From Candidatus Yanofskybacteria bacterium (GTDB taxonomy: Bacteria > Patescibacteriota > Minisyncoccia > 2-02-FULL-40-12 > IGHO2-01-FULL-4-A), in contig JACPNJ010000005.1 of the NCBI GenBank assembly GCA_016185545.1, positions 271,717 to 335,716 of the forward strand: 64,000 bases of DNA, given 5' to 3'. Shown piece after piece: positions 3,452 to 31,846 of this stretch. Each line of letters opens with the position of its first letter. Position 1 is the first letter of the stretch. The position numbers and the translations under genes were made by a program. Below the pieces are notes generated by a model. The model was given only the letters and a program-made list of their open reading frames with translations. It was not told the DNA's origin and searched no databases.

Positions 3452-4837
3452 TTATGAAAAATAGGCGTCTAGCGAAGTACTTCTGTTTGTTTCGCACGGA
3501 TAACCCCCGGCACATTCGTTTTCCATTGTGTACTTGTCAAAACTAAATTTATTATTAAAAAATTTCATTATCTCTTCAGTATCTCTAACGGCATTGAAAA
3601 GACAAACCGAAGCGCCAGGAGAAGGCGTCATGTTAAAGATGATATGGTTTCCAATAATTCTTCCTTCACCGAGTTGCAGTTCATGAGTTTCCGTGTCTAC
3701 TCTTTGAAGTCTCATCCCGCCAAAACCCTTGGCTTTTTTAAGATCCCGGGCTTTGATAGATGGAACAATTTTCCTGATATTTGCCAAAAACAAAATTTTG
3801 CCTACCAAAGGAAGATCGTATAGGGCGTTTTTTACCAAATATTTAAATCTCGTATGGTCGCTTAAAATTTTAATAAAACTTTTTGCCGTGCAGTATCTAA
3901 AAAGTCCTGCTGACTTAAAATAATCTACTGAAGTGGAAAGTTTTCCGCTTTCCAATACCGGAAAAAATTTAGCTGTCGGTCCCCATCTTGTTTTATTGGA
4001 AACTTGTACGTCAGGATCACCATGAACTGATGCAAAGGGCAATTTTTTGTTCTGTATAGTATAAACTTTTCCATTTAAAAGCCGGTCTGAAAAATAAAAA
4101 TTGCCAGCAATCGGAACAAGCGAAAACTTATTTCCATATCCGAGTGATTTAGCAAAAAGTAAACTGTAAGAGTCGGCATCCACCACAACAACACCAGCCT
4201 TGAATACTCCTTGATTGGTGGCTACCTGATATACATCGTCGGTTCTTTTTATATTTTTCACCTTGCATCCCAAAAATAAGTTCGACCAGTTGTTTGCTCC
4301 TCTTTTGACTTCTTTTACAAAAGATGCCGCCAGCATTTCATAATCAACTGCATATCCATCATGTGTATATAATGCCAAGATTTCTTCATTTTCTCTTCTT
4401 CCTTTTGTTATATTTGGTTCTACTTTTTCAATTCCTCTTTTATCTAACTTCTGCAAATCTGGATATAATTCTTTAATTTCTTCGTATCTTTTTTCCAGCT
4501 GAACAACTTCGTCTTTAGCTACCGCTAAAACCATCTTAGATACTTTAAATAAAATTTTGTTCTGCTCATCGGGGTGCAGTTTTTTCACATAAGTAGGAAT
4601 CATCATGGCCGCTGTTTTTACTATTTTTGCTTTTTCTAATGGATAGTTGGTTTCAATATCGCCCACATGAAGAGTCTGGCTGTTGTTTCTGCCCCTAGAA
4701 TTAACCTGCGCTACTTTATTATACTTTTCAAGAAGAGCCACACTAGAAATATCCGTGTATTTGGATAACACGTAAAAGAGGGCAGTGCCGCTCACGCCTC
4801 CTCCGATTATTAATACATCATATTTATCTTTATCCAT
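3452..4837 (-). CDS. FAD-dependent oxidoreductase, malate:quinone oxidoreductase-like
   Basis: DVLIIGGGVSGTA Rossmann motif; ~460 aa; overall Mqo-like layout. Start moved to internal MDKDKYDV. Confidence 0.5.
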   Translation of the reverse strand: MDKDKYDVLIIGGGVSGTALFYVLSKYTDISSVALLEKYNKVAQVNSRGRNNSQTLHVGDIETNYPLEKAKIVKTAAMMIPTYVKKLHPDEQNKILFKVSKMVLAVAKDEVVQLEKRYEEIKELYPDLQKLDKRGIEKVEPNITKGRRENEEILALYTHDGYAVDYEMLAASFVKEVKRGANNWSNLFLGCKVKNIKRTDDVYQVATNQGVFKAGVVVVDADSYSLLFAKSLGYGNKFSLVPIAGNFYFSDRLLNGKVYTIQNKKLPFASVHGDPDVQVSNKTRWGPTAKFFPVLESGKLSTSVDYFKSAGLFRYCTAKSFIKILSDHTRFKYLVKNALYDLPLVGKILFLANIRKIVPSIKARDLKKAKGFGGMRLQRVDTETHELQLGEGRIIGNHIIFNMTPSPGASVCLFNAVRDTEEIMKFFNNKFSFDKYTMENECAGGYPCETNRSTSLDAYFS

Positions 4838-5090
4838 AATTATATTCAAAATTATATTGTAAATTATATTGGAAATATATATTTTTATCATGAATTGACC
4901 GTTTTAAAGTTAAAATTTAATTCAAACTTACCTGCTATCTTGGCTACATAAACGCAAAGAACACGACGTTTGCGTGTTGTGTTGGGGAGCATTGCCGCGC
5001 GGTCGATCACGGCCGTATCAATCATAACAATCAATAGTTTTGTTAGTTTTGTTCAGAGCGTTTTTTTAAGAAAGGGGGTGTAATCATATC

Positions 5091-5540
5091 ATGAAAAAAT
5101 CCACGAAAATAGCGGTTTCAATGGCCATTTTTGGCGTGCTGGCAATGACCGCGATTGTCGCTTATCCCGGCAATAACGCCAAGGCGGCAGGTATTGACGG
5201 CATTTCCAGAGCCGCCCACGGCAATGTTTCGCGACTAGGCGAACTGCTTGTGTTAGACGGATTGTTTGCCAATGATTTCAACAGCATAGATAATCGTATC
5301 GACGGTCCTTCACGCTTGGGCGAACTGATCGTCTTAGACGGATTGTTCGGCTTCGGCAACGGGCTTAACGGCAACGGCACGAGAAACGTTTCGCGACTCG
5401 GCGAACTGCTTGTCTTAGACGGATTGTTCGGCAATAGTATAGACGGAGTAACCGGTAGCAGAATCGGCGGCGCCTCTCGCTTAGGCGAACTGTTAGTCTT
5501 AGACGGATTGTTCGGCTTCGGCAACGGATTTATCAGGTAA
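5091..5540 (+). CDS. Secreted repeat protein with 4x SRLGELLVLDGLFG motif
   Basis: Strong signal peptide (MKKSTKIAVSMAIFGVLAMTAIVA). Four ~28-aa repeats, visible also as DNA direct repeats. Confidence 0.5.
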   Translation: MKKSTKIAVSMAIFGVLAMTAIVAYPGNNAKAAGIDGISRAAHGNVSRLGELLVLDGLFANDFNSIDNRIDGPSRLGELIVLDGLFGFGNGLNGNGTRNVSRLGELLVLDGLFGNSIDGVTGSRIGGASRLGELLVLDGLFGFGNGFIR

Positions 5541-5601
5541 GTCCGGCAGCAAGAGAGAATTGCAAGTTTCTCTCTTGTGCCGGATTTGTCATTATACCAT
5601 C

Positions 5602-5991
5602 ATGAGCGTGAGAAATTTCTTTTCTACCCACAACAAATTATTACTTATTATATTATTTGGTTTGGCTCTGTTCGGCACGGGTTATTTTGCGTTGGCACGT
5701 ACTTCCAGCATTATTACTATAGTCAATGAGCGGCCTGCCCACCCCGTCCTAGACGGGAGGGCGGGCAGAGGCAGGATCGGTGGCAACTCCGGCGCCGAAC
5801 CCTACTGCTATAATGGCGATAACAATCTTGGCCAACTGATAGTTCTTGACAGCTTATTCGGCACAGATTACAAAAAAGCCGACGGCAGTGACAGGTTCTC
5901 GCGCCTGGAACGGCTGATTGTTCTAGACAGATTGTTCTCTAATCAATCTAATTCCGGCGGACGTTCCTGTCTGTCACCTCTTGAGGAGTAA
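5602..5991 (+). CDS. Secreted/membrane-anchored paralog with 2x LGQLIVLDSLFG / RLERLIVLDRLF repeats
   Basis: Hydrophobic N-terminus, same repeat motif as the 5091 gene. Start set to the internal Met. Confidence 0.45.
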   Translation: MSVRNFFSTHNKLLLIILFGLALFGTGYFALARTSSIITIVNERPAHPVLDGRAGRGRIGGNSGAEPYCYNGDNNLGQLIVLDSLFGTDYKKADGSDRFSRLERLIVLDRLFSNQSNSGGRSCLSPLEE

Positions 5992-7216
5992 CGACAATAA
6001 CGTTCAGACCTAATTTGTTAAGTTCTTTGGTCAATCCCTCTTCGTGGCCAGCGCCGAATTGTATAACTCCGACCGTCTGGCCTGATTCTTTCAGGGCGGA
6101 AACGAAGTTCTCGGCCGCCTCAAAATTACGTTTTTCCACGACAGTCCTCTCAATCTTGGTTTCTGAATCAACCAAAAGTCGGCGCAAAAGATCGGTATTA
6201 TAGACGGCATTATAAGGATTGTCGGCTCGCGATGACGCATTGCCGGCTAAGTTCAACGCTGAATTGCCTTGGCCGGTCCCGGTCATTTCAGAAAACAAAG
6301 AACGGCAAAGTTCTATTTGCTGGGCCAGTTCTTGTTTGCCTTGCTGGTTGGCTTCCGATTCCAAAGCATCAAACCGACGCGAGACATCACTACCACCGCT
6401 CAGGATTAGGGTTAAGGTTTCAAGCAATGAAGCGTCAAAAAACCTGCCCAAGTAAGGGCCGGAGGCGGCCAGGGTTTCAAGATTATCCAACCTGTCCTGT
6501 AGATAGATGTTATCTCTGACCAAAGCGGCACTTTCTTGAAGCGTGGCTTGGTTTTCGGAACCAAACAGAGTTATATCGCCACCCTCGGCCTTGTAAACCA
6601 GCGGCGCACCTTTCAAGATGATTTCACGGCCTGTTTTGGCCAGTTGTTTATCAACGCCAGTCCTGAGGTCATCCTCAAGTTGAGGGTTAATGCTACCCTG
6701 CTCAAGTTCTTGGTTAAGTTTGCGGTATGCGGCCAGAAAGCGATCGCGAGTGTCTATTTTTTCTTTAAGCGGTTCAATGACGCTTGACGGTACCGGGCCG
6801 GCTAACTGGCCCTCCACGACAAACAATTTGACCCCGAATTGTCCGGCCAGATGTTTAACTATCTGAAGGGTTTGTTCTTGGTTCTGTTGCGCCGAATCGT
6901 TAATGCCGTCTCCGGCCTCCGAACCCGGATTCCTGTGATATTGAGGAATCAAGACAGCAGTGCCGAAGGTGGCTGGCGCCGAATGAAAGGTAACTTTGCT
7001 AACGGGCAAGTTGCGATAAGCCGCTATGTCCGACAAAATCTCGGCCGGATTATCCCTATTACCGCTTTCGTGGCCAATATTAACAACTGTTTGTTTCTCG
7101 CTAACAGCAGAAACCCCGCCATTTAAGAAACCACCACCAGCAAAAACGCCCAATAACAAAAGAACGGCTGCGGAAAGAACAACTATGATGTTTTTGGTTC
7201 TGAAATATATAGACAT
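5948..7216 (-). CDS. Hypothetical exported protein, possibly ChaN/Tiki/TraB-superfamily-like
   Basis: N-terminal TM. N-terminal IGHESGNRDNP and C-terminal VIQFGAGHEEGL motifs are reminiscent of the GxxH motifs of that superfamily. GC clearly above flanks. Confidence 0.4.
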   Translation of the reverse strand: MSIYFRTKNIIVVLSAAVLLLLGVFAGGGFLNGGVSAVSEKQTVVNIGHESGNRDNPAEILSDIAAYRNLPVSKVTFHSAPATFGTAVLIPQYHRNPGSEAGDGINDSAQQNQEQTLQIVKHLAGQFGVKLFVVEGQLAGPVPSSVIEPLKEKIDTRDRFLAAYRKLNQELEQGSINPQLEDDLRTGVDKQLAKTGREIILKGAPLVYKAEGGDITLFGSENQATLQESAALVRDNIYLQDRLDNLETLAASGPYLGRFFDASLLETLTLILSGGSDVSRRFDALESEANQQGKQELAQQIELCRSLFSEMTGTGQGNSALNLAGNASSRADNPYNAVYNTDLLRRLLVDSETKIERTVVEKRNFEAAENFVSALKESGQTVGVIQFGAGHEEGLTKELNKLGLNVIVVTPQEVTDRNVRRN

Positions 7217-7482
7217 GGTTATTGAAACTAATATTGCGCCGCCTTGTCTTCATTATTTTAGAGCCGATAAGCACTAATTGGCTTGATTTCGACCGGTAAA
7301 ATAACGATTACCTGGCTTACGCGTGAAGATATTAGTTCATTCGTCCATTATAATTTCACGATCCAGACAGTCAATAGTTTTCTTCACGTTTCTTCATAAT
7401 AGAAAAACCGTCCGATGATAATGATAATCGGCCAAATAAAAAATCCGCCGTACGCGGCGGATTTTTAATAATATCTTGAGGC

Positions 7483-8190
7483 TTACTTTTCTGTATTTGC
7501 TCTGGGGTAGCGGCCGTAGACATTCAGCCGATAACCAACTCCGCGGATTGTTTCCAGCATATTTTCACGAGAATTATTGCCGATTTTCTTCCTCAAGTTC
7601 TTAATATGCACGTCAACAATATTGCTGAACGAGGCGAAACCGAAATCCCAAAGATGATCCAGGATTTGTTCGCGAGTGATCGTCTGGCCGGGATTGCGCA
7701 TAAAGTATTCCATCAGACTGAACTCTTTGAGCGTCAAGGGCAGTTCTTTACTGTCACGGTAGGCTCTGTGGGTGTTGAGATTGATGCAGATATCGTTGAC
7801 TTTCAGGGATTCGGTAATAGTTTCCGCCGGCCGACGAAGCAAGGCTTTGACTCTGGCGTTTAACTCCTCAAAGAAAAAAGGTTTGACCAGGTAATCATCG
7901 GCGCCGCTATTGAGGAGCGTAACCTTGTCTTTGACGTCAAAGCGGCCGGTTAAAATCAAGATCGGAATTTTGATGCCGCTTTGGCGGATGCTTTTACAAA
8001 TCGCGAAACCGTCTTTGTGCGGCAACACTAAATCCAGGATTAATAAATCGTAACCATCGTGATTGATCTGGATGCGCCGCTCGCCTTCTTCGCCGTCCAA
8101 CAGATAATCAACGGCGTAACCTTCGTCCTCAAGATTTTTCTTAAGGCCGCTGGCAAGATCCTGGTTGTCCTCAATAATCAATATCCTCAT
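7483..8190 (-). CDS. OmpR-family two-component response regulator
   Basis: REC domain (MRILIIEDN...LILDLVLP...K) plus winged-helix C-terminus (RGVGYRL). Start set to MRILII. Confidence 0.85.
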   Translation of the reverse strand: MRILIIEDNQDLASGLKKNLEDEGYAVDYLLDGEEGERRIQINHDGYDLLILDLVLPHKDGFAICKSIRQSGIKIPILILTGRFDVKDKVTLLNSGADDYLVKPFFFEELNARVKALLRRPAETITESLKVNDICINLNTHRAYRDSKELPLTLKEFSLMEYFMRNPGQTITREQILDHLWDFGFASFSNIVDVHIKNLRKKIGNNSRENMLETIRGVGYRLNVYGRYPRANTEK

Positions 8191-8242
8191 GGTTTTTAAC
8201 ATCTTAGATAAAAAACGTAGTCTACATAAATGATAATTAAAG

Positions 8243-8722
8243 TCAAGTCCTGTCAAAACGGATCCCGGACTTAACACCTTTCCCGTTCTTCGCAATAGCG
8301 GTATAAACTAGCCCCAGAATAAAACCATACACTAAATGTCCCCATAAGCTTGGCAAGGCCATTTGTATTCCTTGCTTTGAAAGCTGGCTGCCTATACCCA
8401 AAAGCCAGGGCATAATAATCAGCGGTCCCAAAAACCACAAGACTAGAGAGAAAGCCAGGCCAAGCGCGATGTTTTTTGTTTTACCTGTCGTTTTACATCC
8501 CAGAAAAACAGCAAAAAATAAACCAAAGACGACACTGAATAATGTGTTCGTCATTAAGCCGAAAATGACTGAATCTCCACCCAGGAGCCTGGCGATAGTC
8601 GGCAGCATTCCCGTCGCGCCGCTTATAGCGCCAAAGACGGCACCGGCAATAAAGCTGGCCGTTATGCCAGCCTTGATACTACGGTGGCAGCTATTAATTT
8701 TGATTGCTAAGGCGTTTTGCAT
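8243..8722 (-). CDS. Small multi-pass membrane protein
   Basis: Four hydrophobic helices; no recognised motif. Confidence 0.45.
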   Translation of the reverse strand: MQNALAIKINSCHRSIKAGITASFIAGAVFGAISGATGMLPTIARLLGGDSVIFGLMTNTLFSVVFGLFFAVFLGCKTTGKTKNIALGLAFSLVLWFLGPLIIMPWLLGIGSQLSKQGIQMALPSLWGHLVYGFILGLVYTAIAKNGKGVKSGIRFDRT

Positions 8723-8743
8723 GGTTTTTATAATTAACTTTGT

Positions 8744-9814
8744 TTATTTGTTATTCAATAAGCCTGATTGCGCCTGCTCTAAGGCCAGCTTTACTTGATT
8801 GGCCGGGATGGCAAGACTGATGTTTTTGGCGCCATCTACTATGGCGGTGTTGATTCCTATGACCTCTCCCTGAAGATTCAGCAAGGGTCCGCCGGAACTG
8901 CCTGAATTTATAGCAACATCAGTTTGGATCAATTTATCCAAGCGCGCCAATTGTTTGCCGTTAGCGTTACCGACAGCGACAGAACGAGACAAATTAGAAA
9001 TTACACCGCGCGAAACGGTATTGGCAAATTTTCCCAAAGCATTACCGATAGCGATAACCGTTCGTCCATTTTCCAACTTGTCCGAATCTCCCAAAGTCAA
9101 AAAGGGCAGATTTGAGCCGTCAATCTTTATAATGGCCAGGTCTTTGTCCGGATCTCGCGATAAAACCTTTATTTTGTGTTTGACACCATCCTCGGTAATC
9201 GCGAAAAGTTCGCCTTTGCCCGCGTCAATCACGTGTTTGTTGGTTACGATCAGGCCGTCCGGACTGGCAATGAAACCGGAACCGACACTGGTCAATTCAT
9301 CAGCTTGCTTGCCGGGAGCCTGTCTGGTGATTTGTTTAGACGGCGTTTGGAATTCGGCTTCCGAACATTGTTTTCCCAAAGCAAGCTTCAATATGGGGTC
9401 TTGGCAGGTATTAGCAATAATCTTGTTTTTAAAATCCTCTTCTCGCCGCGTTTCCTGGCTTCTCTGGCTTTGGCTTTCCTTCTGTGCCGCATCGTCAGGC
9501 GTTGTTTCTATATTTTTGCTAATATCCTCACTATTAGTAGTACCCAAAATAGCAATGCTGACTACAGACGGGTTAGCTTTTTTGACCACACTGACCACAA
9601 GCGACTCTTCGGTTGTCATCGCCAAACCCGCTTCGGCATTAATTTGCCGACGCGCCAACACGGCCGCATCAACACCAATAAATTTGAAACTGGAAACAAG
9701 ATAACCGAAAAGACCGCCAACAAGACCACCAACCGCAGCAGACATTATAAAACTGGCCAGTAATCCCTTGCTTCCCCTGTTAAGGTTAAGATTTTGTATT
9801 TCGTTCATATCCAT
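8744..9814 (-). CDS. Trypsin-like serine protease (HtrA/S1C-like, no PDZ), membrane anchored
   Basis: TNKHV (His), DLAII (Asp) and NSGSSGGPLLN (Ser) catalytic motifs; N-terminal TM. Confidence 0.8.
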   Translation of the reverse strand: MDMNEIQNLNLNRGSKGLLASFIMSAAVGGLVGGLFGYLVSSFKFIGVDAAVLARRQINAEAGLAMTTEESLVVSVVKKANPSVVSIAILGTTNSEDISKNIETTPDDAAQKESQSQRSQETRREEDFKNKIIANTCQDPILKLALGKQCSEAEFQTPSKQITRQAPGKQADELTSVGSGFIASPDGLIVTNKHVIDAGKGELFAITEDGVKHKIKVLSRDPDKDLAIIKIDGSNLPFLTLGDSDKLENGRTVIAIGNALGKFANTVSRGVISNLSRSVAVGNANGKQLARLDKLIQTDVAINSGSSGGPLLNLQGEVIGINTAIVDGAKNISLAIPANQVKLALEQAQSGLLNNK

Positions 9815-10271: not shown

Positions 10272-12959
10272 ATGTCGCGTATTTTTGAAGCAAAACTAAT
10301 ATATAGTAAAAAAATCGCCGAAGATACGGTGGAGGTTAGGTTCGGAATCATGATCGCGGATCAAAAGTTTTGTCATCAGCCGGGACAATACCTGCGGCTG
10401 ACCCTGCCCAAGTTTCTATTCATAGATTCCATAGAAAATTCCAGAGACTTTTCCATTTTATCTTGCCGGCGCGAACAGAGAAAACAGGCTACTAAACAAA
10501 AACAAAACGAAGACTGTAACTGTGAGAAAGAGGTTGCGATCGCTTTTAGATTAACAGAGCCCTTTAGTAAATTTAAGAAAACCCTTCTCAAACTGCCGGC
10601 CGGTTCGCCTGTTATAATCAGCGGTCCTTACGGCAATATGACCTTACCTAAGACAAAGGAGAGAATTTCTTTGATTTTTTTTGCCGGCGGCATCGGAATT
10701 ACCGCGTTTATAGACAAGATAACGTCTGTATGCGAAGAAGGTTTGCCCTACCAGCTTACCTTGATTTGGGCTGACCGAAGTCAGAAAAAGGCCGCCTACT
10801 ATGAAGTCGTCAGGAAATACGCCGAGATCTGCCCTGATCGATTCAGACTGATAACTCTGTTTAAGGACAAAGGCAAGGCAATAAAAATAGATTCGGCATT
10901 TATCAAAAAAAACGTTCCTAATTACCTGACCGCCTTTTGGCAGATAGCCGGCCCGACCCCGTTTGTTAAGACTTGTGACGTCCAACTTAGTAAATTGGGA
11001 ATATCCGACGACAAAATAACTTGCGAAGACTACATCGGTTACAATCTGACAAATGGCAAGCTAAGAACCAGAGGCAGAAACATCAAGCCGGAAAACGAAT
11101 TAGGCAGGAAACGTTTCGGCGGATTTTTGGAAGCTATTAACGCGGCAGCCATGGTAACCGAAACGGACGCCCGAGGTAATATTACTTTTGCCAATAAACA
11201 GTTCACGGAAATCTCCAAGTATAGCCAGGAAGAATTAATCGGCCAGAACCACAGACTTTTTAAGTCCGGCCATCATACTACTGAATTTTACCAAAATCTT
11301 TGGCGCACAATATCCAGCGGTCAAGTCTGGCGCGGAGAAATCAATAACATCGCCAAAGACGGCTCGTATTTCTGGGCGGATACCAGTATCGCGCCGGTTT
11401 TTGATAATAAAGGCAAAATCATGAAATACGTTGCCGTGCGGTTCCTGATAACCGACCGAAAAGAAGCGGAAGACAAGGCTCATTATCTCGTTTCAGTCGT
11501 TCAGTCGTCCAATGATGCCATAATTAGCAGTAATTTGGATAATATTATTACTACCTGGAATAAAGGCGCGGAAAACCTTTACGGCTATACGGCCACAGAG
11601 GCAATCGGCAGAAATCACAGTATCATCCTACCGATTGATTGTCATAATGAACTGGCCGAGATACATGAAAAATTACAAAAAGGAAAGGCCGTACCCAATT
11701 ATGAAACCAAAAGAAAGCACAAAGACGGATCAATTGTTGATGTAGCCATGATCGTTTCACTGGTCTTGGACGCCGATGGCGAAATCGTCGGTTTATCAAC
11801 CATCGCCCACGACATTACCGAAAAAAAGAAATTTGACAAAAAAAAAGATGATTTTCTGGCGGTTCTTTCTCACGAGTTAAGAAACCCGCTAGCCGCGATT
11901 TTGTTATACACCCAACTTGCTCAAGCCAAACTTAAAACCACGGCTGGTTATGACGTCTTGATACGCGCCGAATTAGCCGAAGCGATAGATACGATCAAGA
12001 AACAAGCCGGCAATATGACCAGTCTGATTAATGACTTGCTTGACATCGGCCGCGTCATAAACAATAAAATCATCTTGCATGTTAAAAAGACGGATCTGGC
12101 TGATTGTGTTCGCAACGCTGTCAAGACCTCGGAATCCTTTATCCGCGAACGGCAAAATACTCTGTCGGTATCAATGCCCGAGCAACCCTTAATCGTCGAG
12201 GTTGACCCGGTCAGAATGGAGCAAATCATTGTCAATATACTTAGCAACGCTTCAAGATACAGCGCGCCGGGCAAACCGATAGAGCTGACACTAGGGGCCG
12301 GCGAGTCTTTTGGCGAGATTCAGATCAAAGATTACGGCCGCGGCATCCGCAAAGATATGATCGGCAATATTTTTAATATGTTCATCCAGGCTGACAAAGA
12401 CTCCGCCGGCTACAATCAGAACTTGGGCTTGGGTATTGGTTTGTCTTTGATCAAAAACTTAGTTGAACTTCACGGCGGAACCATAACTGTCCAAAGCGAC
12501 GGCCCCGACAAGGGCAGCGTATTTACGGTACGAATCCCGCTTTATTATGTCAGCCAAGCTGAAAGCAAAAACCCAAATACCCAGATTCTGGTGGTTGACG
12601 ATGAGAAAGAAGCGGCCGACGGCCTTGCAGAATTATTAAAAATTAATCTGCCACACAATTATATTATTAAATCGACGTATAGCGGCGACATGGCTCTAGA
12701 AATGATAGCCGCCGGATCAGTCAGCCCCAAATTTATCATGTTGGATATCGCCATGCCCGGTAAAAACGGCTACGAAGTGGCCAAAATAATCAAAAGAGAT
12801 ACCAAATTAACTGGTACCTCGTTAATTGCCGTTTCCGGCTTTGGACAAGAAAACGACAAGCTCAAAGCTAAAGAAGCGGGCTTTGATTATTATTTCACTA
12901 AGCCGTTAGCCAACGTAGATGAACTGCTGCATATTATACAAAAATCAGATAACATATAA
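10272..12959 (+). CDS. Hybrid sensor histidine kinase with N-terminal FNR-like FAD/NAD(P) oxidoreductase domain, two PAS domains, HisKA/HATPase and C-terminal receiver
   Basis: RDFSILS (RxYS), GPYGN and GGIGITAF motifs in the FNR-like domain. Two PAS domains. HisKA box SHELRNPLAAI, G-boxes, and REC (VVDDE...LDIAMPG...K). Confidence 0.8.
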   Translation: MSRIFEAKLIYSKKIAEDTVEVRFGIMIADQKFCHQPGQYLRLTLPKFLFIDSIENSRDFSILSCRREQRKQATKQKQNEDCNCEKEVAIAFRLTEPFSKFKKTLLKLPAGSPVIISGPYGNMTLPKTKERISLIFFAGGIGITAFIDKITSVCEEGLPYQLTLIWADRSQKKAAYYEVVRKYAEICPDRFRLITLFKDKGKAIKIDSAFIKKNVPNYLTAFWQIAGPTPFVKTCDVQLSKLGISDDKITCEDYIGYNLTNGKLRTRGRNIKPENELGRKRFGGFLEAINAAAMVTETDARGNITFANKQFTEISKYSQEELIGQNHRLFKSGHHTTEFYQNLWRTISSGQVWRGEINNIAKDGSYFWADTSIAPVFDNKGKIMKYVAVRFLITDRKEAEDKAHYLVSVVQSSNDAIISSNLDNIITTWNKGAENLYGYTATEAIGRNHSIILPIDCHNELAEIHEKLQKGKAVPNYETKRKHKDGSIVDVAMIVSLVLDADGEIVGLSTIAHDITEKKKFDKKKDDFLAVLSHELRNPLAAILLYTQLAQAKLKTTAGYDVLIRAELAEAIDTIKKQAGNMTSLINDLLDIGRVINNKIILHVKKTDLADCVRNAVKTSESFIRERQNTLSVSMPEQPLIVEVDPVRMEQIIVNILSNASRYSAPGKPIELTLGAGESFGEIQIKDYGRGIRKDMIGNIFNMFIQADKDSAGYNQNLGLGIGLSLIKNLVELHGGTITVQSDGPDKGSVFTVRIPLYYVSQAESKNPNTQILVVDDEKEAADGLAELLKINLPHNYIIKSTYSGDMALEMIAAGSVSPKFIMLDIAMPGKNGYEVAKIIKRDTKLTGTSLIAVSGFGQENDKLKAKEAGFDYYFTKPLANVDELLHIIQKSDNI

Positions 12960-20900: not shown

Positions 20901-21602
20901 TTATTTGTCATCATTTGGTTTTTCTTTCAATAGCGCTTCGGTTCCTCCTCTGGTGCCGACCCTGGCAACATGTTTTTCTTCAAATTCGTTTATTTCTCCT
21001 TTGCGCGCTTTAATCAGCATGGCATAATTCATTAAATTACGGGCCATCACGTCTAGCATCGCTTTGGTGGCTTGATTTTTGCGGCGCTTTGTCGCGTCCA
21101 CATTCATGCCTCCGCCAACCTCGCCCACCCAATAAGCGACACTCTCGGGCGGTATGACAAATCCGAGCCACTGCAAGAAATTATACAAATTCCCTACAAT
21201 ATGCTGAACTCCGTCTTCGTGGCCGGTAATAACCAAACCGGCGACTTTATGATAGAGATCTGATTTTCCGGTCATAATATACGACTCGTCAAAATGAGTC
21301 ATTCGTTCCATAACTCGCTGAATCAAACTTGATTGTCCGCCCCACCAAATGGGCGTGGCGAAAATAACAATGTCCGCTTGTCGCAAAGCGTCGGCAATTT
21401 TGAGCCATTCATCGTCGTCAGACATCTTTTCCTCCAAGCCCACCGGAATATTCATATTGGCCAAACGAAACTTCTCTACCTCAACTCCATATTCGGCAAA
21501 ATGATTCAAAAGATCATTAACAAGCTCATCAGTATTAGACGGCTCATTCCCGGTCTTAAGAGTTCCCAATAAAACTATTGCTTTTAGTTTTTGTTCCGCC
21601 AT
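20901..21602 (-). CDS. Flavodoxin-like NAD(P)H:quinone oxidoreductase family protein
   Basis: IVIFATPIWWGGQSS motif. Confidence 0.7.
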   Translation of the reverse strand: MAEQKLKAIVLLGTLKTGNEPSNTDELVNDLLNHFAEYGVEVEKFRLANMNIPVGLEEKMSDDDEWLKIADALRQADIVIFATPIWWGGQSSLIQRVMERMTHFDESYIMTGKSDLYHKVAGLVITGHEDGVQHIVGNLYNFLQWLGFVIPPESVAYWVGEVGGGMNVDATKRRKNQATKAMLDVMARNLMNYAMLIKARKGEINEFEEKHVARVGTRGGTEALLKEKPNDDK

Positions 21603-31740: not shown

Positions 31741-31798
31741 ACATTTATTATATTACCTTGTGACTCGGCCGTAAAAACAAAATTGTTGATAACCAATA

Positions 31799-31846
31799 TC
31801 CTCCCTAAATCAAAACGGCCCACTGGGCCGTTTTGATTTAGGGAGG
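31799..31846. terminator. Perfect 23-bp-arm palindromic hairpin
   Basis: tcctccctaaatcaaaacggccc a ctgggccgttttgatttagggagga, directly abutting tRNA-Thr. Confidence 0.4.

Follow-up and report, generated by a model that had tools for sequence, protein, structure and literature searches.

Enzymes of the Tiki fold use a catalytic set of His and Glu residues and include peptidases as well as esterases, and in RRSP the 2His/2Glu set consists of E3900, H3902, E3930 and H4030 (PMC6254334). Within this superfamily, PrgY is regarded as an extracellular peptidase that degrades a hydrophobic pheromone peptide at the cell wall, with PrgY and TraB acting on hydrophobic pheromones of 7-8 residues (PMC7117660), and Tiki/TraB peptidases have also been noted in loci for ribosomally synthesized and post-translationally modified peptides (RiPPs) (PMC8939145). 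Patescibacteria, also called the Candidate Phyla Radiation (CPR), account for a large share of bacterial diversity and live attached to hosts, and their surface biology and most of their lineage-specific gene functions are little known. Here, we describe a locus in a stretch of 64 kb from a Candidatus Yanofskybacteria (CPR) genome, hereafter the window, in which two genes for exported repeat proteins, A and B, converge on a third gene, C, whose product is 100% identical to NCBI HYX20_03420. This region is one copy of a Patescibacteria-wide three-gene cell-envelope module and not a recently acquired bacteriocin island. As to its function, we tentatively favour the reading that C is an ecto-hydrolase recognising, and probably cleaving, the repeated unit of A and B, and that the module is switched by an envelope-type regulator. 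The three genes and the repeated units are located as follows.

5091-5540, plus strand: gene A, 149 aa; Sec-exported and predicted to be disordered; from the open reading frame (ORF) and its translation
5235-5267, 5316-5348, 5397-5429 and 5481-5513, plus strand: the four SRLGEL[LI]VLDGLF units of A; from a motif search
5602-5991, plus strand: gene B, 129 aa from ATG; membrane-anchored divergent paralogue of A
5948-7216, minus strand: gene C, 422 aa; putative divergent member of the TraB/PrgY/Tiki superfamily; from the family alignment and an AlphaFold2 (AF2) model

Conservation of the module across the CPR

A set of 24 non-redundant loci with a C-family gene was collected, 21 of them found through C alone and three through A-family proteins. 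A repeat-protein gene lies beside C in 20 of the 21 loci found through C, the exception (L021) being a contig that ends at C, and all three loci found through A carry a C-family gene (E from 1e-88 to 1e-119); the repeat-protein gene adjoins C in 23 of 23 assessable loci. In 22 of these 23 the nearest repeat gene is convergent with C across gaps of 17-204 bp (in the window, a 44-bp overlap of the 3' ends), with the exception of L023, where it is divergent from C at a distance of 278 bp. Ten loci have the same order as the window, namely a distal canonical copy (A-like), a C-proximal degenerate copy with a long spacer (B-like) and C. Taxonomically, the loci are spread over Levy-, Falkow-, Nealson-, Peregrini- and Saccharibacteria (the latter represented by L024 and L025) and other Parcubacteria. 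The LGE-L[IL]V-LD type of the repeated motif forms one clade in the tree of C, and therefore the pair diversifies as a unit.

Apart from the C and repeat genes, regulators are the sole other recurrent neighbours: a gene for an extracytoplasmic function (ECF) sigma factor is at most 5 kb away in 13 of the 24 loci, six loci have a histidine kinase, a response regulator or both, and three have a Crp-type regulator. Four loci (L010, L017, L019 and L022) come from metagenome-assembled genomes titled 'uncultured Gammaproteobacteria bacterium', in which the module is found with CPR-like neighbours, and these labels are probably wrong. In L005 (7368-7856, plus strand), L007 (10040-10519, minus strand) and L008 (2353-2865, minus strand), the position of the first small gene is taken not by a repeat paralogue but by the gene for a different, membrane-anchored protein of about 160 aa with the motif 'QLYxQGITV' and no Pfam match, each time with a Crp-type regulator.

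The repeat proteins A and B

Gene A has a strong Shine-Dalgarno sequence (GGGGGTG), and its product starts, by inspection, with a signal peptide composed of MKKSTK, a hydrophobic core and AKA↓A, followed by the four units (for example, NVSRLGELLVLDGLFGN) separated by linkers rich in G, N, S and D. Protein B consists of an N-terminal transmembrane helix, a 43-aa spacer and two degenerate units, NLGQLIVLDSLF and SRLERLIVLDRLF, and has two Cys; it is the representative of its own cluster (P0036), and its gene is also called in locus L003. An earlier description made from the letters of the window only (hereafter the sequence-only reading) had proposed two paralogous exported repeat proteins, one with a signal peptide and four units and the other with two, and this was indeed confirmed, with the additions that the units of B are degenerate and that B carries a membrane anchor. 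Its remark that the motif is unfamiliar also holds, as A, B and the motif match no Pfam or NCBIfam model, and the motif strings were not found in about 8 million full texts of the literature. A PADLOC scan gave no matches for A, B or C. In PHROGs, residues 73-85 of A weakly match phrog_23040, a phage family annotated as function-unknown (E=6e-4; not significant), which is probably a chance match driven by the repeat unit, and elsewhere in the window the motif has two isolated single matches only (21515-21547 and 31776-31808), which look like chance.

Comparison of the four units of A revealed 23 synonymous versus 3 non-synonymous codon differences, all three of the latter being L/I, and hence the sequence of the motif peptide itself is under strong purifying selection. 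The repeat family comprises 200 clusters, as found by searching 1.84 billion representatives exhaustively with a profile, and its consensus over 454 units is [ST][NDS]-L-G-[DE]-L-[FI]-[VI]-L-D-x-L-F-[GN], with a unit of 11-13 residues. Family proteins mostly contain 2-6 units (range 2-7), the commonest spacing being 23-30 residues (range 15 to >100), with linkers composed of 26% Gly, 13% Asn, 10% Ser and 10% Asp, and the last unit is C-terminal, followed by a median of 6 aa. Peptidoglycan-binding LysM domains are present in 33 of 83 long family representatives (including P0002 and P0010), often inserted between units; no LysM domain (PF01476) was found in A and B of the window. This variable spacing and the insertion of LysM domains between units indicate that the units are independent linear motifs. 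Taken together, the features of the family indicate that A/B-type proteins carry such short motifs on a flexible chain, which stays at the cell wall or close to it. The AF2 model of A, built on a shallow alignment of 10 sequences, is without secondary structure or strands (predicted local distance difference test, pLDDT, 45.8), and A is predicted to be intrinsically disordered. Between the two repeat genes lies a further element.

5536-5590, plus strand: stem-loop over the A stop codon, between A and B; -34.2 kcal/mol, z = -7.4, a stability reached by none of 200 shuffles

This stem-loop is without a clear U-tract and may be an attenuator or an mRNA-stabilising element that sets the A:B ratio.

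A different explanation of these proteins is a structural surface assembly, in which A would be the major subunit and B an anchored nucleator or anchor of a fibre, a matrix, an amyloid-like layer or a wall-membrane tether, as likened to CsgA/CsgB, FapC/FapB and the short and long chaplins, with C serving as an accessory maturation enzyme or chaperone. Several of the above features agree with such an assembly, including the combination of a distal canonical copy with an anchored divergent C-proximal paralogue in 10 loci, LysM domains in 33 of the 83 long members, linkers rich in G, N, S and D, and very strong ribosome-binding sites, which suggest abundant proteins. The hairpin that follows A is consistent with a high ratio of A to B, and an ECF sigma factor is encoded nearby in 13 of the 24 loci; chaplin genes are under the control of the ECF sigma factor BldN. 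However, we consider a structural assembly rather unlikely, given that AF2 assigns to A no solenoid or secondary structure (pLDDT 46; shallow alignment), that variable unit spacing and folded LysM domains between units argue against a regular stacked repeat fold, that each hydrophobic unit has two acidic residues inside it, and that this explanation gives no reason for the universal linkage to a single partner, a TraB/Tiki-type enzyme with invariant His/Glu.

Two other assignments of the motif were tried and rejected. The resemblance of LGELLV to the N-terminus of type IV pilins (L-I-E-L-L-V) does not extend to the family consensus LGDLFILDQLF, which is unlike it, and a G↓F cleavage site is lacking. 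Likewise, the C-terminal unit does not qualify as a sortase or exosortase sorting signal, since the unit is also repeated internally and holds two acidic residues. Related variants of the unit are carried by P0123 and P0162, namely IGEWIVLNGLF, and LGGLI[VT]LNGLF alternating with LAGLIAVNNL, which suggests a wider superfamily of linear-motif proteins. In L004, which represents the same species in another sample, the A allele (product P0001) is without exactly 165 nt, equal to two units, and the contigs of L002 and L003 break inside the repeat array; these differences reflect either real copy-number polymorphism or collapse during short-read assembly.

Protein C as a probable divergent member of the TraB/PrgY/Tiki superfamily

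Protein C is composed of an N-terminal transmembrane anchor (aa 8-25), a disordered linker (27-54), an alpha/beta domain and a long helical insert, and since the single N-terminal transmembrane helix is preceded by R/K, the domain is placed outside the cell. The AF2 model has a pLDDT of 82.3, with the core above 90. The C family contains about 20-30 sequences, of which 17-24 were used to read invariance and 17 were taken separately for profile scans. Invariant residues are Q92, H94, P97, N106, Q113, E135, G136, R197, E221, N333, P334, R363, Q386, G388, A389 and H391, and the whole FGAGHEEG stretch is invariant. The signature motifs, invariant or nearly so, follow each other as LIPQYH94, FVVE135G, KR363N364 and QFGAGH391EEG, and by inspection the same order is observed in PrgY (LVGTAH, CLEWD, ERD, IGQAHLRG) and in E. 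coli YbaP (LIGSIH, IVEAD, QRN, VGALHLYG), with P-Q replacing G-x of GxxH in the first motif of C. This comparison is by eye only, as hhalign and hmmsearch with the C profile against the single PrgY and YbaP sequences were uninformative because these templates have an effective number of sequences (Neff) of 1. The invariant H94, E135 and H391 were mapped to the RRSP set by motif position, not by structural superposition.

Among the 17 members scanned, PF01963 (TraB_PrgY_gumN) weakly matches nine, with a best E of 1.6e-4, and TIGR00261 (traB) matches four, with a best E of 5.2e-6, and besides these two no other family recurs. The C protein of the window has no PF01963 match at E<=1 and no curated family match of its own, with TIGR00261 giving E=0.078 and 11.9 bits versus a cut-off of 178. 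Its top Foldseek match in the PDB is EreC (6xcs_A), which is weak (E=0.039, probability 0.69, TM-score 0.23). A sequence-profile search of the PDB with the C family returned coiled-coil and designed-repeat noise only, and a profile search of 5.8 billion proteins with the C alignment extended no further than the search with the single sequence, no Pfam-annotated homologue that would bridge the families being among the matches listed. From these results, we conclude that C most plausibly represents an outward-facing divergent branch of the TraB/PrgY/Tiki superfamily, and catalytic activity of C is presumed. The earlier suspicion that the 422-aa protein belongs to the TraB/Tiki/ChaN/Ere superfamily was hence well placed, resting now on PF01963 in 9 of 17 members, TIGR00261 and EreC as the top fold match. 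Of the two motifs cited for it, GAGH is real and invariant; 'GHE...NP' (aa 48-58) is present but lies in the non-conserved, low-confidence linker. Neither the repeat family nor the module as a whole is described in the libraries and literature available, and C is a new sub-threshold branch of its superfamily.

The likeness of C to PrgY brings in another explanation, according to which A is the precursor of a peptide signal that C would either cut into 2-7 identical hydrophobic peptides or destroy, as has been proposed for PrgY and TraB, with the peptides being sensed by the adjacent two-component system (TCS) or ECF factor. Purifying selection keeps the units near-identical, the last unit stands at the C-terminus with its median tail of 6 aa, regulators are consistently adjacent and response regulators co-travel with the module, all of which agree with a signal precursor, as do the pheromone substrates of PrgY/TraB (PMC7117660) and the occurrence of Tiki/TraB in RiPP loci (PMC8939145). 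Nevertheless, this is judged to be quite improbable. Versions tethered by LysM or anchored in the membrane would not be expected of a signal that diffuses, neither a peptide transporter nor a peptide-binding receptor is a conserved neighbour, and no conserved cleavage-site residues are evident outside the unit. Moreover, the type of regulator (ECF, two-component or Crp) changes from locus to locus, which points to general control of transcription and not to a dedicated sensor.

Promoters, flanking repeats and the response regulator

In the window, the regulator adjacent to the module is an OmpR-family response regulator (RR), and the intergenic regions around A and C contain the following elements.

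5027-5054, no strand assigned: left copy of a shared element, 36-64 nt upstream of the A start
7347-7374, minus strand: sigma-70-type promoter of C; TTGACT, 16-nt spacer, TATAAT; 11/12 match, the best of the region
7367-7395, no strand assigned: right copy of the shared element, directly upstream of and overlapping the -35 box of C
7436-7469, minus strand: intrinsic terminator of the RR transcript; arms 7436-7450 and 7455-7469; -20.5 kcal/mol, z = -3.9
7483-8202, minus strand: OmpR-family RR; Pfam Response_reg and Trans_reg_C

The left copy reads, as reverse complement, TGAACAAAAC-TAACAAAAC-TATTGATTGT, and the right copy on the minus strand reads TGAAGAAACG-TGAAGAAAAC, which is a tandem repeat with a 10-bp period (TGAAG-N5-TGAAG). 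The segments 5027-5044 and 7367-7384 are identical at 16 of 18 positions, with a looser likeness beyond those 18 nt, and the exact 11-mer TCAATAGTTTT occurs at both copies only within the 64 kb. In L001, TGAAC-N6-TGAAC with an 11-bp period is located upstream of the TTGACT -35 box in the C promoter, and the promoter of its RR contains CTTCA-N6-CTTCA. The flanking direct repeats that had been reported as the borders of a cassette thus exist, but as both lie in promoters, with the right one over the -35 box of C, they are read not as borders but as promoter/operator elements and as candidate operators of an OmpR-type RR, with a confidence that is only moderate because the evidence comes from two loci. 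The element is the presumed binding site of the RR. The hairpin terminator recognised earlier was also found, its 15-nt arms being 93% complementary and followed by a U-tract on the minus strand, and it stands between the RR unit and the promoter of C. The RR of the window is 48-57% identical to the module-adjacent RRs of L001, L012, L020 and L023, is more conserved than C, and probably belongs to the module.

Directly upstream of the RR gene, genes for an HtrA-like protease and a DUF1440-like membrane protein form a tight co-directional array with it (8243-9814, minus strand), and a PAS-containing hybrid histidine kinase (10272-12959, plus strand), about 2 kb away, is the sole candidate kinase for this RR, which is otherwise an orphan. 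In other loci, further candidate regulatory sequences were observed. An ECF sigma gene (11048-11584) is adjacent to the repeat genes of L006, and both of these repeat genes (upstream of 10786 and 9789, minus strand) have an identical ECF-type promoter, GTAACATTC-N15/16-ACGTAATATA. The leaders of L012 (upstream of 8551 and 7600, minus strand) contain a long conserved stem, GAGGGCCATAAT ... ATTATGGCCCTC, before the ribosome-binding site, and the leader of L020 (upstream of 7684, minus strand) contains the stem GAGGGCTGCA ... TGCGGCCCTC in the same position; these stems may constitute a structured regulatory leader.

Proposed function of the module

In the mechanism that we tentatively favour, C would act as a membrane-anchored, outward-facing hydrolase, and the secreted A together with the membrane-anchored B would be disordered proteins displaying several independent copies of a hydrophobic-acidic motif. 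The repeated motif would be the recognition, and probably the cleavage, site of C, so that A and B are presumed substrates or ligands of C, which would process, trim or turn them over at the cell surface. In other lineages, LysM would hold A at the wall instead of a paralogous membrane anchor. The adjacent envelope-type regulator would set expression, here through the OmpR-type RR and elsewhere usually through an ECF sigma factor, with the tandem TGAAS elements in the A and C promoters as candidate RR boxes.

Several observations weigh against this mechanism or parts of it. The C family remains below the Pfam cut-off (best 18.4 versus 26.8 bits), and the only part of the profile matched is its C-terminal third, by the RN.E…QFGAGHEEG segment. 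The position of the first Glu in the 2His/2Glu set of RRSP is taken in C by the invariant Gln92. As to recognition of the motif, the three columns of C that perfectly discriminate motif types (93, 127 and 380) each lie at most 11 residues from H94, E135 or H391; at least three discriminating columns were also obtained in 8 of 120 phylogeny-matched control partitions, which makes the result not significant, and L014 breaks the Y93 rule in the co-variation of motif type and C. In the other loci that are linked to a TCS (L012, L020 and L023) the TGAAS pattern is missing, so that the operator idea concerns two loci. Finally, LysM fusions (about 40% of long members) and the anchored paralogue fit a structural wall role equally.

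Base composition and comparison of the site in relatives

The sequence-only reading had further proposed that a GC-rich segment of some 2.3 kb with imperfect direct repeats at its borders is a horizontally acquired cassette for a secreted effector or bacteriocin. The GC-rich island is real, with 5091-7216 at 0.490 versus a window mean of 0.424 (standard deviation 0.020; sliding windows of 2.1 kb), which is the maximum of the 64 kb. It is also correct that plus and minus genes converge here in a minus-strand setting: besides A and B, the sole plus-strand gene among 47 ORFs of at least 150 aa is the above kinase gene (10272-12959), and A and B are hence rare plus-strand genes. GC at third codon positions (GC3) gives no clean foreign signature, being high for A (0.58) and B (0.53) but ordinary for C (0.49) versus a window mean of 0.43 (standard deviation 0.05), and equally high for the neighbouring RR (0.58) and the genes next to it. 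Since the GC3 of C resembles that of the genes to its right (0.47-0.58, RR included), there is no right-hand compositional edge, and the sharp left edge owes much to the AT-rich gene for an Mqo-like FAD oxidoreductase (3452-4837, minus strand), which has the lowest GC3 of the window, 0.32.

For comparison of the site, 30 metagenome contigs were used whose Mqo-like genes show 44-87% identity (62% or more in 29 contigs). In none of the 30 does a C-family or repeat gene lie within 8 kb of the Mqo-like gene, and the cassette is hence not an ancestral feature of this site. Around the Mqo-like gene, synteny is mostly fluid. Five relatives have the DUF1440-like gene immediately next to the Mqo-like gene; in the window, RR, C, B and A stand between the two, which defines the variable block as 4838-8242, RR included. 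This block contains RR, C, B and A only, and the flanking repeats are internal to it. Gain or rearrangement did occur at the site, the cassette being absent there in the relatives, but the variable block extends beyond the repeats to 8242 and takes in the RR.

To the acquired effector or bacteriocin cassette we give very little credence, even though GC in the window peaks in this region, the 30 related contigs lack the cassette beside their Mqo-like gene, an exact 11-mer is shared by the two flanks only, and the proteins are exported. The repeats on which its borders depend lie in promoters, the right one over the -35 box of C, and the variable block reaches 8242 with the RR inside and has no compositional edge on the right. 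No integrase is present in the block and no tRNA within 16 kb, the C-family gene was not found on viral contigs, phages or plasmids, and there is no defence-system match. At the locus there is no double-glycine leader, ABC/C39 exporter, transporter, immunity or modification gene, and A has a Sec-type signal peptide. Hallmarks of mobility and of bacteriocins are thus lacking, and the pair is deeply conserved and co-diversifying across CPR classes.

Some additional observations concern the borders between genes. The convergent genes B and C share 44 bp at their 3' ends (5948-5991) and have no terminator between them, so their transcripts must overlap, and antisense effects or transcriptional interference at this point are possible. 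The Mqo-like gene has different neighbours in each related contig examined. Immediately upstream of its likely start, 4838-4876 contains three tandem 12-nt AT-rich repeats (AATTATATTNNAAAT); the true start is likely the ATG at 4837, the longer ORF call from 4891 reading through the repeats. Between the A and Mqo-like genes, an intergenic terminator-like hairpin (4960-4978, minus strand) would stop minus-strand read-through from the direction of C and RR. An Rfam scan of the region gave sub-threshold matches only, caused by the terminator hairpin.

Significance and comparison with known systems

These results define a compact CPR module that unites a new repeat-motif family, a new TraB/PrgY/Tiki branch and a linked envelope regulator, and offer a biochemically testable hypothesis of an enzyme with a built-in multivalent candidate substrate. 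The module would be among the few cases of a bacterial TraB/PrgY-type protein with an obvious linked partner and could clarify the role of this family. Experiments are feasible, since the module is present in Saccharibacteria, a group with cultivated and genetically tractable members. If the peptide-signal explanation were true, this would be the first circuit of peptide cell-cell (or epibiont-host) signalling in Patescibacteria and a chromosomal, ancient counterpart of the enterococcal pheromone/PrgY system.

Among known systems, multi-core precursors of the cyanobactin PatE type also have tandem near-identical units in a small precursor beside a putative peptidase. However, A has a Sec signal peptide and not a leader, no modification enzymes or exporters are encoded nearby, and in A the conserved part is the unit and the variable part the low-complexity linkers. 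Curli CsgA/CsgB, Fap and chaplins likewise pair a secreted repeat protein with an anchored or divergent paralogue and contain Gly/Asn-rich segments, and here too ECF-sigma control is frequent and an associated protease common. The repeat proteins described here differ from them in having no predicted beta-solenoid, irregular spacing with inserted domains, no sequence similarity and no dedicated secretion pore.

As judged by motif position, C appears to retain the conserved His-Glu pair and the second His (H94, E135, H391) of EreB/EreC, Bcr135/136 and RRSP, placed on a beta-alpha-beta core as described for these enzymes (PMC6254334). The match to EreC is weak (TM-score 0.23), and Gln stands in place of the first Glu of the RRSP set. 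The substrates of Ere and RRSP are a macrolide ester and the Ras switch I loop, and these proteins are cytoplasmic or toxin-delivered and not membrane-anchored ecto-enzymes.

In contrast to PrgY, which has a C-terminal multi-transmembrane domain, C has a single N-terminal anchor and a helical insert of about 170 residues, and its presumed partner is a Sec-exported protein with 2-7 motifs and not, as for PrgY and TraB, a fragment of a lipoprotein signal peptide. Unlike the pheromone plasmids, the module is chromosomal and CPR-restricted and has no PrgX- or PrgZ-like components, and its neighbours are ECF, TCS and Crp regulators rather than the RRNPP-type regulators or oligopeptide-binding proteins of the enterococcal shutdown system. 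At the same time, C resembles PrgY (pCF10) and TraB (pAD1, pPD1) of Enterococcus faecalis in being predicted as a membrane-bound protein with an extracellular Tiki-type domain, in the order of its four motifs, hhhGxxH, hhhhE, R[DN] and GxxHxxG, and in having regulators beside its gene. For PrgY, too, the proposed target is a peptide at the cell surface that is short and very hydrophobic (PMC7117660).

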